IMG/VR virus record: IMGVR_UViG_2534681774_000019 | Span: 1 to 21,213 of that record | DNA from: a virus | Taxonomy: Duplodnaviria > Heunggongvirae > Uroviricota > Caudoviricetes | Reading direction: 5' to 3' (one strand) | DNA: 21,213 nucleotides | Shown: positions 14,780-18,105 of the stretch, one piece after another | Layout of the letters: every line of letters starts with the position of its first letter | How positions within the stretch are numbered: the stretch's first letter is position 1 | Program-made: the position numbers and the translations under genes | The notes under the pieces: model-generated | What the model saw: only the letters and a program-made list of their open reading frames with translations | Database searches by the model: none | Told to the model about the DNA's origin: nothing

Positions 14780-15139
14780 ATGCGTATAGAGTTTGTTTTG
14801 CCTTACCCGCCAACGGTGAACACCTACTGGCGACGTCGTGACAACACATATTTTGTATCAAAATCCGGTGAGCGTTATCGCCGGGATGTGGCGCTAATTG
14901 TTCGCGAGCAGCGGCTGAAATTAAACCTGTCCGGACGGCTGGCGATAAAGATTATTGCAGAGCCACCGGATAAGCGTCGTCGTGACCTGGACAATATCCT
15001 GAAAGCACCACTGGATGCGCTGACGCATGCCGGACTTCTCATAGACGACGAGCAGTTTGATGAAATTAATATTGTGCGCGGTCAGCTCGTTCCTGGGGGG
15101 CGGCTGGGCGTGAAGATTTACAAAATTGAGAGTGAGTGA
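14780..15139 (+). CDS. rusA: RusA Holliday junction resolvase
   Basis: ORF track 119 aa; AAGAGG RBS; LPYPPTVNTYWRRR ... DKRRRDLDNILKAPLDAL ... GGRLGVKIYKIE closely parallels E. coli RusA, including the catalytic Asp cluster. Confidence 0.9.
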   Translation: MRIEFVLPYPPTVNTYWRRRDNTYFVSKSGERYRRDVALIVREQRLKLNLSGRLAIKIIAEPPDKRRRDLDNILKAPLDALTHAGLLIDDEQFDEINIVRGQLVPGGRLGVKIYKIESE

Positions 15140-15690
15140 TCGTAAATATGATATACCCGGAAATTACAGGCAAAAGCGGCGAGCATTTACGTCTAAAAAC
15201 GCTGGAAGCCGTCTGGATCCAGGGGAAATTACGGATGTGGGGGCGTTGGTCGTACATAGGTGGTGGCAAACCAGGAAATATGTTCAATCAGTTGCTGACA
15301 TCCAAAAAACTGACAAAAACCGCGATCAATGAAGCCCTGCGTAGAATCAGGGAGTCAGGGATTGATAAACCAGAGCTGGAAGCATTCTTGCGAGAGATGA
15401 TCGCTGGCAGACAGAAGAGCTGGTTGTCTCACTGTACTGATGCAGAGGCGTTACGCATTGATGGGGTGATAAGTAAAGCGCTTGCACGTTATCCTGGATT
15501 GATTGATATCCTGCGGCAAAGATACGAAGGGCGGGGGATGAGTAAACGCAAAATGGCTGAATTGTTGAATGAGGTGCACCCGGAATGGTGTTTTAGTACA
15601 TGCGAAAAGCGAATTGCTAATTGGTTGGCTGTTGCTGAATATGCGCTATACATCCCTATGCGAGAATCGTTTGCTCAAAAAATGTCTTGA
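15136..15690 (+). CDS. putative late-gene antiterminator (Q-like), assigned mainly by position
   Basis: ORF track 184 aa; GTG start overlapping the rusA stop; lies between rusA and a short terminated leader upstream of the late genes. Sequence is not lambda-Q-like; family assignment is tentative. Confidence 0.45.
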   Translation: MIVNMIYPEITGKSGEHLRLKTLEAVWIQGKLRMWGRWSYIGGGKPGNMFNQLLTSKKLTKTAINEALRRIRESGIDKPELEAFLREMIAGRQKSWLSHCTDAEALRIDGVISKALARYPGLIDILRQRYEGRGMSKRKMAELLNEVHPEWCFSTCEKRIANWLAVAEYALYIPMRESFAQKMS

Positions 15691-16268: not shown

Positions 16269-17318
16269 ATGATTAATACTGTAAAAATATCCAGTTGTGA
16301 GTTAATCAACGCTGATTGCCTGGAATTTATCCAGACCTTACCGGAAAACTCTGTCGATCTGATAGTCACAGACCCGCCATACTTTAAAGTGAAGCCCGAG
16401 GGCTGGGATAACCAGTGGGAGGGCGACGATGATTACCTGAAATGGCTGGACCAGTGTCTGGCGCAGTTCTGGCGGGTACTGAAGCCTGCCGGAAGTCTTT
16501 ACCTGTTCTGTGGTCATCGCCTGGCATCTGACACCGAAATCATGATGCGTGAGCGCTTTAATGTGCTGAACCACATTATCTGGGCGAAGCCGTCCGGACG
16601 CTGGAACGGGTGCAATAAGGAAAGTCTGCGGGCGTATTTTCCGGCAACAGAGCGCATTCTGTTTGCAGAACATTATCAGGGACCGTATCGCCCGAAAGAT
16701 GATGGCTATGTGGCACAGGGGCGCGAGCTAAAACAGCACGTCATGGCCCCGCTGATTTCTTACTTTCGTGATGCGCGTAAATCACTGGGAATAACGTCAA
16801 AACAGATAGCGGAAGCCACCGGAAAGAAAAACATGGCTTCGCACTGGTTTGGTACCAGTCAGTGGCAGTTACCGAACGAGGGTGATTACAACAAATTGCA
16901 GGCGTTGTTTGCCCGGGTGGCAGAAGAGAAACATCAGCGCGGGGAACTGGAAAAGCCACACCACCAGCTGGTCAGCACATACAGTGAGCTGAACCGGCAG
17001 TATATGGAACTGCTGAGTGAATATAAAAATTTGCGGCGGTATTTCGGTGTGACGGTGCAGGTGCCGTACACCGATGTGTGGACGTATAAACCGGTGCAGT
17101 ACTATCCAGGGAAACATCCGTGCGAAAAACCGGCAGAAATGCTGCAGCAGATAATCAGCGCAAGTAGTCGTCCTGGTGATCTGGTTGCGGATTTTTTCAT
17201 GGGGTCGGGTTCAACGGTAAAAGCGGCGATGGCACTGGGGCGTCGTGCGATTGGTGTTGAGCTGGAGACCGGACGTTTTGAGCAGACAGTCAGGGAAGTT
17301 CAGGATTTAATCGTTTGA
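16269..17318 (+). CDS. beta-class DNA methyltransferase (N6-adenine or N4-cytosine), no partner restriction gene
   Basis: ORF track 349 aa; catalytic DPPY near the N-terminus (LIVTDPPYF) and AdoMet-binding FFMGSGST near the C-terminus. Confidence 0.85.
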   Translation: MINTVKISSCELINADCLEFIQTLPENSVDLIVTDPPYFKVKPEGWDNQWEGDDDYLKWLDQCLAQFWRVLKPAGSLYLFCGHRLASDTEIMMRERFNVLNHIIWAKPSGRWNGCNKESLRAYFPATERILFAEHYQGPYRPKDDGYVAQGRELKQHVMAPLISYFRDARKSLGITSKQIAEATGKKNMASHWFGTSQWQLPNEGDYNKLQALFARVAEEKHQRGELEKPHHQLVSTYSELNRQYMELLSEYKNLRRYFGVTVQVPYTDVWTYKPVQYYPGKHPCEKPAEMLQQIISASSRPGDLVADFFMGSGSTVKAAMALGRRAIGVELETGRFEQTVREVQDLIV

Positions 17319-17367
17319 AACGGATGAGATTGCAGTATTAATTCCGTAACGTTATTATTCTGCGCGC

Positions 17368-17443
17368 GGCCCTTTAGCTCAGTGGTGAGAGCGAGCGACT
17401 CATAATCGCCAGGTCGCTGGTTCAAATCCAGCAAGGGCCACCA
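17368..17443 (+). tRNA. tRNA with CAU anticodon, tRNA-Ile2 (lysidine) type, ileZ-like
   Basis: Cloverleaf GGCCCTT / D-arm GCTCAGTGGTGAGAGC / anticodon loop CTCATAA / T-arm GGTTCAAATCC / AAGGGCC-ACCA; near-identical in architecture to E. coli ileX (acceptor C4, C5). Confidence 0.9.
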
Positions 17444-17540
17444 TCACATACCGCCATTATCTCATCAGGAAAGAGCGCCAGCCTTCGAAGCTGGTTGCGC
17501 GGAGTTCGGGTCCCCGAAGGCGGTCCATTATCTGTATCCT

Positions 17541-17617
17541 GCGTTGTTAGCTCAGCCGGACAGAGCAATTGCCTTCTAAGCAATCGGTCACTGGTTCGAA
17601 TCCAGTACAACGCGCCA
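17541..17617 (+). tRNA. tRNA-Arg (anticodon UCU), argN-like
   Basis: Acceptor GCGTTGT/ACAACGC, anticodon loop CTTCTAA, T-loop GGTTCGAATCC, discriminator G, encoded CCA. Confidence 0.9.
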
Positions 17618-17631
17618 CACTTATTTTCCCT

Positions 17632-17656
17632 GGCTCGCTTTTGCGGGCCTTTTTTT
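17632..17656 (+). terminator. rho-independent terminator after the tRNA pair
   Basis: Stem GGCTCGC/GCGGGCC (one G-U pair), loop TTTT, followed by seven T. Confidence 0.6.
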
Positions 17657-17852
17657 AATAGTCTCACAATTCAGACGGTTGACAGTTGTCTGTTTTGCGG
17701 GGAGTTTGTTAAAAGAAACTGGCATGGTGAATCCCCCTGTGCGGAGGGGCAATCAGCGAGTAGGTATATGGGATAATCGTGGATTCAGGTGCTGGTACTG
17801 AATTCACCGGGAGGCACCCGGCACCATGCAATGGCACATAGCGCCACTCTCC

Positions 17853-17878
17853 AGCCCCTCTCCGGAGGGGCTTTCTTA
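17853..17878 (+). terminator. rho-independent terminator (plus strand) in the cargo slot
   Basis: Perfect 8-bp stem AGCCCCTC/GAGGGGCT, loop TCCG, followed by TTCTT. Confidence 0.5.
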
Positions 17879-17883
17879 TGGAC

Positions 17884-17912
17884 AAAAAAAGCCCGCGCAG
17901 GGAGACGCGGGC
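17884..17912 (-). terminator. rho-independent terminator oriented for leftward transcription, back to back with 17853..17878
   Basis: Perfect 7-bp stem GCCCGCG/CGCGGGC (17891..17897 / 17906..17912); A7 on plus strand gives a T-run on the minus strand. Confidence 0.45.
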
Positions 17913-18105
17913 GGCAAGGAATAAACAACAAAACGTGAAGTAATATTTCAGCTGGCGAATAATATCCGACAGTAATCACTCTGCGCAATAGCGCGGCCTT
18001 TTTCGTATTGCGGGCTGTTGTCTCTCTTCTGCCATTGTCCTGTAACTTCCGGACTTCAGCCCGCTCCTCATTTTACTCACAATATTATCCCGGCCGGGAG
18101 GATTC

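Follow-up and report, generated by a model that had tools for sequence, protein, structure and literature searches.

Convergent sRNA pairs have been described at the moron site 3′ of PR′, the Q-dependent late promoter, in the Sakai prophages Sp3, Sp4, Sp5, Sp9, Sp10, Sp11, Sp15, and Sp17 (PMC4104026), and the description is repeated in a review (PMC7873438). The Sp5 pair was named EcOnc27 and AsxR (PMC4104026). One partner of the Sp5 pair, EcOnc27, belongs to the STnc100 family, which has been reported 75 nt downstream of the stx2 operon (PMC12370729). Among its relatives, sRNA103/EcOnc27 raised fimZ and espA when overexpressed, and PasD of EPEC has many RIL-seq partners. As Juhala et al. (2000) are cited in PMC4104026, moron sites downstream of PR′ are late-region positions that tolerate alternative insertions. 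The site examined here is likewise such a position, yet it holds no cargo.

The window analysed, a stretch of 21,213 nucleotides from an IMG/VR virus record, carries a moron site of this kind. The initial annotation had read the 490-bp interval in front of the esterase gene as the toxin slot of an Stx-type phage, present but empty. Judged from sequence comparison, however, what separates the argO-like tRNA from the esterase gene is very probably not a vacated toxin slot but a conserved module of regulatory RNAs that belongs to the late-region moron site in Stx-type lambdoid prophages. This convergent sRNA module is already known from Sakai prophages (PMC4104026). The interval matches an RNA family, is nearly identical to Sakai Sp4, and coincides with published Hfq peaks and northern probes.

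The gene order given in the initial annotation was borne out by Pfam searches. A Q-like late antiterminator gene (15136–15690, plus strand; DUF1133, 341 bits; Phage_antitermQ, 28 bits) is followed by an N6/N4 DNA methyltransferase gene (16269–17318, plus strand; N6_N4_Mtase, 153 bits), the tRNAs, a NanS-p-like sialate O-acetylesterase gene (18106–19958, plus strand; DUF1737+SASA, DUF6645), a P21-type holin gene, and an endolysin gene whose product has a Gly/Ala-rich N terminus. A methyltransferase gene between Q and the tRNAs is common to the window and the Stx2a phage Stx2_95. With Q, the ileZ/argN/argO set, an sRNA dyad, the nanS-p esterase, holin, and endolysin all in place between homologous flanks, the region has the gene order of an Stx-converting lambdoid late region. 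The proposed Stx-phage-type backbone likewise stood, as identity to Stx2a phages is 91% to 92% in the methylase/tRNA flank and 74% to 79% from 17661 onward. The esterase gene itself is split into 18106–19473 (DUF1737+SASA) and 19482–19958 (DUF6645) by a 1-nt deletion in an A-run near 19455, when compared with its intact 617-aa counterpart in E. coli O111:H2 12A. Either the gene is a pseudogene, or a homopolymer sequencing error produced the split. In the gap of about 150 nt between esterase and holin genes (19960–20080) lies a strong terminator hairpin (20041–20069, plus strand), with a stem of 12 bp and a U-run. The PasA/PasC sRNAs of EPEC and EHEC prophages have been reported between esterase and holin genes.

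ARAGORN and Rfam both found a complete ileZ/argN/argO set on the plus strand. It comprises a tRNA with a CAT anticodon (17368–17443; ARAGORN Met-CAT; Rfam tRNA, 72.5 bits), which is ileZ-like, annotated as tRNA-Ile in RefSeq for strain 12A, and corresponds to Sakai ileZ1; an argN-like tRNA-Arg(TCG) (17451–17527; Rfam, 33.8 bits; Sakai argN1); and an argO-like tRNA-Arg(TCT) (17541–17617; Rfam, 70.1 bits; Sakai argO1). The last of these had been declared absent, and the interval then called empty begins immediately 3′ of it. A terminator directly after the tRNAs had been proposed correctly: terminator scanning and folding found an intrinsic terminator closing the cluster at 17632–17656 on the plus strand (hairpin 17632–17649 plus T7), which reads GGCUCGC-UUUU-GCGGGCC then U7 and folds at −13.8 kcal/mol (z −4.3). 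It is kept in the Stx2 phages, where it lies upstream of stx2A.

The boundary of the cargo was located by blastn of window positions 17300–18200 against the Stx2a phage Stx2_95 (L001) and Sakai Sp5 (L123). In Stx2_95, 17300–17655 matched 2308–2664 at 91% identity and 17661–18200 matched 4001–4563 at 79% identity; in Sp5, 17319–17655 matched 2717–3054 at 92% identity and 17661–18200 matched 4391–4929 at 74% identity. The Stx2-phage homology thus stops at 17655 and picks up at 17661 in both references, so that the Sp5 breakpoints are those of the window. Between the two matches, Stx2_95 and Sp5 hold 1336 bp, that is, the stx2 promoter region, stx2A, and stx2B, where the window has 5 bases (17656–17660). 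These two alignments shrink the slot from the 490-bp interval originally proposed to about 5 bp, and the whole of 17661–18105 also occurs in both Stx2 phages, 3′ of stx2B. Consistently, Rfam placed an STnc100 gene downstream of stx2B in both: at 160 bits in Stx2_95, a layout that agrees with the published one, and at 207.7 bits in Sp5 (L123 4423–4628, plus strand), where AsxR (4630–4682, minus strand; 88 bits) is directly convergent with it. The Sp5/933W-type Stx2 locus, whose dyad consists of EcOnc27 (STnc100, sRNA103) and AsxR, therefore has the same order as the window: tRNAs, terminator, cargo position, plus-strand STnc100, minus-strand sRNA, a conserved hairpin, and esterase. It differs in that the 1336-bp stx2AB segment is present, in that the minus-strand partner is the 53-nt anti-sRNA AsxR, and in a right flank only 74% identical to that of the window.

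The first element of the module is an STnc100-family sRNA gene of EcOnc05 type on the plus strand (17661–17883), assigned by Rfam family RF02076 and by identity to Sp4. The Rfam match covers 17693–17883 and model positions 1–206 of 206, scoring 137.7 bits against a gathering threshold of 47, and the conserved module begins at 17661. Its intrinsic terminator (17853–17880, plus strand; hairpin 17853–17872) reads AGCCCCUC-UCCG-GAGGGGCU then UUCUUAU, folds at −19.8 kcal/mol, and aligns with the 3′ stem of the Rfam STnc100 model. Like EPEC pasD2, which has been reported upstream of a sialate esterase gene in a lambdoid prophage, this full-length covariance-model match lies 5′ of such a gene; PasD, however, was reported to be too diverged from STnc100 for BLAST, whereas the window copy is a clear STnc100. 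The consensus promoter scan reported no plus-strand promoter. Two candidates were read by eye: T-TAAT at the junction would suit an RNA of 220 nt, and TTGTCT-18-TAAAAG one of about 160 nt. Positions 17679–17684 read TTGACA in the window and in strain 12A and TTGACT in Sakai Sp4, 25 nt from the nearest −10-like element. In RefSeq, strain 12A (99.9% identical) carries an incomplete pseudo "hypothetical protein" opposite STnc100 (window 17713–17838, minus strand; L002 16471–16596), which is probably an annotation artefact over the sRNA gene.

Sakai Sp4 provides the closest described locus. Window positions 17368–18200, spanning the tRNAs, the interval, and the esterase start, are 98.6% identical to it, and Sp4 has the same three tRNAs (ileZ1/argN1/argO1), a 489-nt gap, the same hairpins, and the esterase gene ECs_1088. 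The two differ by a few SNPs and by a net 1 nt in length at the junction, which reads GCGGGCC-T7-AATA-GTCTCACAA in the window and T8-AAAT in Sp4 and strain 12A. Upstream of the tRNAs, the window has the methylase gene, while Sp4 has CAAX-protease and AraC-type genes. Three Hfq-CRAC peaks published for Sakai (Tree et al. 2014, PMC4104026, Table S2) were mapped from Sp4 to the window: EcOnc05 at 17754–17862 on the plus strand, with a northern size of about 222 nt, and EcOnc08 (17886–17958) and EcOnc21 (17964–18049) on the minus strand, each with a northern size of about 271 nt. The EcOnc05 northern probe is antisense to 17751–17785 with one mismatch. The probe for EcOnc08/21/42 has the sequence of the plus strand itself (17958–17992, no mismatches), indicating that the RNA it detected was a minus-strand one. 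The interval is thus not empty, since it holds a full-length STnc100 at 17693–17883 on the plus strand and, on the minus strand at about 17884–18050, the counterpart of a published Hfq-bound RNA.

The second element is a convergent minus-strand sRNA of EcOnc08/EcOnc21 type (17884–18077), placed by the Sakai Hfq-CRAC peaks and the northern probe, with its 3′ end near 17884 and its 5′ end probably somewhere between about 18050 and 18155. Its intrinsic terminator (17884–17912, minus strand; hairpin 17912–17891) reads GCCCGCGU-CUCCCU-GCGCGGGC then U7 and lies 18 nt from the end of the plus-strand stem at 17872. In one relative (L117), the terminator stem still pairs through a G-C to A-U double change. 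The sole consensus promoter match, on the minus strand at 18112–18084, overlaps the ribosome-binding site and start codon of the esterase gene. Together with an Hfq peak reaching 18049 and a northern size of about 271 nt, this promoter-like site suggests that the minus-strand RNA is antisense to the esterase leader. Folding of the whole RNAs was unremarkable both for the plus-strand sRNA (z −1.9) and for a 272-nt minus-strand RNA (z −0.6); these z-scores are weak and were not used as evidence.

The minus-strand RNA had no Rfam family match, and membership of AsxR/AgvB was considered and rejected. Neither family (RF02703, RF02702) matched at E≤10 in 17600–18150 or in the Stx2_95 homologue, while the same scan returned AsxR at 88 bits in Sp5. 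AsxR/AgvB share with the window a back-to-back layout convergent with an STnc100-type sRNA at the moron site. The 3′ region of these anti-sRNAs, however, conserved over about 42 nt, reads ..UCUCAUGC..UUGCCCGAACCCACUCGGGC, and both the window hairpin, GCCCGCGUCUCCCUGCGCGGGC, and the sequence upstream of it differ from that region. AsxR/AgvB are RNAs of 51–60 nt with a variable 5′ seed of 14–18 nt; the size of about 271 nt given for Sakai EcOnc08/21, and Hfq peaks reaching window position 18049, would speak against so short an RNA here. Among the IMG/VR matches listed, two partner types were found behind STnc100, the AsxR/AgvB/EcOnc03 type and the window type, and the latter is well conserved among the relatives listed. 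We found no function for an EcOnc08/21-type RNA in the literature consulted. It is possible, although we consider it doubtful, that the minus-strand RNA is a dual-function regulator and a second partner class distinct from AsxR/AgvB, which would repress the nanS-p leader and start codon in cis as an antisense RNA in the lysogen and act in trans through the G/U-rich CACGUUUUGUUGUUUAUUCC. This conserved G/U-rich stretch we take to resemble the seed style of GcvB.

Altogether, four terminator-like hairpins lie within 488 bp. G+C-rich hairpins with U-runs predict three clear intrinsic terminators, at 17632–17649 (plus), 17853–17872 (plus), and 17912–17891 (minus), and one weak one at 17981–17996 (plus). 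The weak one (17981–18003 with its U-run) reads CUGCGC-AAUA-GCGCGG then CCUUUUUCG, folds at −9.1 kcal/mol (z −2.0), lies inside the minus-strand RNA, and is conserved in Sp5 and Stx2_95. The region from 15.5 to 19.6 kb contained 10 terminator-like sites, compared with 4.5 ± 2.3 in shuffles, and four of these fall inside the 488-bp interval. A back-to-back bidirectional pair at 17853–17912, noticed in the initial annotation, was confirmed by scanning and folding. As the Sakai Sp4 Hfq peaks and northern probes fall there, the pair can be read as the 3′ ends of the known convergent sRNA dyad.

What relatives carry at the junction was surveyed in IMG/VR with the exact argO 3′ end as anchor, which gave at least 120 loci, 119 of them usable; the class counts are not population frequencies. 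Among the matches listed, 56 of the 119 loci had nothing at the junction; in these, as in the window, the tRNA is followed by the sRNA module at a distance of 43–46 nt. stx2AB occupied exactly this junction in 17/119, which upholds the earlier statement that stxAB lie between the tRNAs and the esterase gene in related phages. A TerB and DUF3927 gene pair was present in 14/119 (six with two further small ORFs), other inserts of about 420–670 nt, including a 117-aa ORF, in 6/119, and short remnants of 75–105 nt in 9/119. The sRNA module was missing from 16/119, where TerB-like or other genes run directly into the lysis genes, and one locus was too short for classification. In one locus (L017), the small membrane ORF of the DUF3927 type survives as its terminal ~65 nt, which lie 3′ of the tRNA terminator and 5′ of the sRNA module, within the first 105 nt after the argO anchor; their persistence marks a deletion scar of the TerB/DUF3927 cargo. 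The right end of that cargo reads ..TTTTAAATGTCTCACAA and shares T-run/TAAAT microhomology with the window junction; gain or loss of any cargo could be mediated by it.

A second mosaic breakpoint is the plus-strand sRNA terminator, at which some relatives have another 630-nt segment, a second tandem STnc100, or no esterase. Two tandem STnc100 copies lie between the tRNAs and the esterase gene, about 40–760 nt after the argO anchor, in six loci (L011, L013, L048, L068, L097, and L118). The first copy is the window-type allele and the second the Stx2-phage-type allele with its minus-strand partner, and these tandem copies of two allele types point to recombination at the sRNA terminator. The view of the locus as a defined cargo-exchange site holds in part: exchange is real, as stx2AB, TerB+DUF3927, other ORFs, and deletion scars in relatives demonstrate, but the site is the junction and not the 490 bp.

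With stx2AB at exactly this position in relatives, the window could in principle derive from a phage whose stxAB was deleted, leaving an empty slot. Deletions do happen at the site, as the ~65-nt DUF3927 scar in L017 indicates, the T-run/TAAAT microhomology between the junction and cargo right ends could serve them, and a clean excision would be traceless. Nevertheless, when the whole window was searched with Stx2A/B by tblastn and with the 1336-bp cassette by blastn at word size 7, there were chance matches only, none near the junction, Stx1 being covered through its similarity to Stx2A/B only. Neither stxA nor stxB separates the tRNA terminator from the sRNA module, and the prophage is stx-negative. 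The alignment that had been suggested as a way to look for stx remnants or recombination scars showed a junction of about 5 bp against both Stx2_95 and Sp5. Among the IMG/VR loci listed, identity of the window sRNA module is 97% to 100% with most other cargo-free loci, about 82% with a few of them, and only 70% to 78% with stx2-linked copies, and the left flank of the window is the allele of cargo-free loci. Furthermore, of 5426 complete E. coli genomes, 1041 (19%) contain the cargo-free junction uninterrupted, as judged with a 201-nt junction-spanning query; these include Sakai, whose Sp4 coexists with intact Stx phages. Of the two options first offered, a stx-negative relative or a toxin-loss derivative, the former is favoured, while the absence of a remnant, the allele split, and the frequency of the junction give nothing that points to loss, which we regard as very unlikely.

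It is similarly improbable that the hairpins are transcriptional insulators only, shielding the lysis genes and yielding no functional RNA products. Four terminator-like hairpins within 488 bp 5′ of the esterase and lysis genes would suit such a role, and for lambdoid phages Q antitermination at PR′, by which polymerase reads through terminators, is well established. One of the hairpins, however, is oriented away from the lysis genes, and the stretch enclosed by the hairpins matches a curated sRNA family over the full model. For the Sp4 copy, which is 98.6% identical, northern blots revealed discrete RNAs bound by Hfq, and discrete Hfq-associated RNAs have also been reported for EDL933 copies of STnc100; sRNA production and insulation are, in any case, compatible. 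Hardly credible is the proposal that small proteins, one or several, are encoded in the interval, from the minus-strand ORFs 17709–17885 and 17785–17988, the RefSeq pseudo-CDS at about 17713–17838, or a 20-codon ORF inside the sRNA. Mechanical ORFs are indeed present, the RefSeq annotation of strain 12A has a partial "hypothetical protein" at this place, and RIBOseq in EDL933 showed ribosome coverage on some STnc100 copies (PMC5331693), with which a short peptide would be compatible. Yet the ORFs traverse the terminator hairpins, the RefSeq feature is flagged as incomplete and pseudo, conservation tracks RNA structure, and none of the three mechanical ORFs inside or across the interval matched Pfam. 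The interval had been described as free of ORFs, which is accurate for ORFs with a Pfam match, although mechanical ORFs of 53–93 aa do overlap it.

Taking the interval as a regulatory-RNA module, we propose from established lambdoid biology how it would work in the window's strain, where expression, promoters, an insulating role, and any target are inferred. The intrinsic terminator would end the tRNA cluster, ahead of the ~5-bp junction where relatives hold stx2AB or other cargo. The plus-strand STnc100-family sRNA (EcOnc05 type) would then stop at hairpin 17853–17872, and the convergent minus-strand sRNA (EcOnc08/21 type) would start near or inside the esterase 5′ end, run antisense to the leader, and stop at hairpin 17912–17891. 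In the lysogen, both sRNAs would presumably be made from their own promoters and bound by Hfq, and the terminators may insulate the esterase and lysis genes from tRNA and sRNA transcription. Once the prophage is induced, RNA polymerase modified by Q at the late promoter would be expected to pass all of the terminators.

The main value of these results is to correct the empty-slot reading. Stx-like prophages with a seemingly empty toxin locus are very common, since 19% of complete E. coli genomes carry the exact junction, and such a locus is not evidence of toxin loss. The DNA beside the toxin site would be regulatory-RNA cargo, carried by stx-positive and stx-negative phages alike, which annotation pipelines leave blank or cover with a pseudo-CDS. 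The junction at 17656–17660 is usable for PCR or in silico typing of the moron-site occupant.

Elsewhere in the window, Rfam gave tandem plus-strand matches to isrK (8671–8747; 61.6 bits) and C4 antisense RNA (8772–8859; 82.4 bits). Both sit within the 5′ part of an ORF at 8614–9468, annotated in RefSeq for strain 12A as a Rha family phage regulatory protein, and the tandem looks like a P1 immI/Gifsy IsrK-type RNA switch before an antirepressor-like gene.
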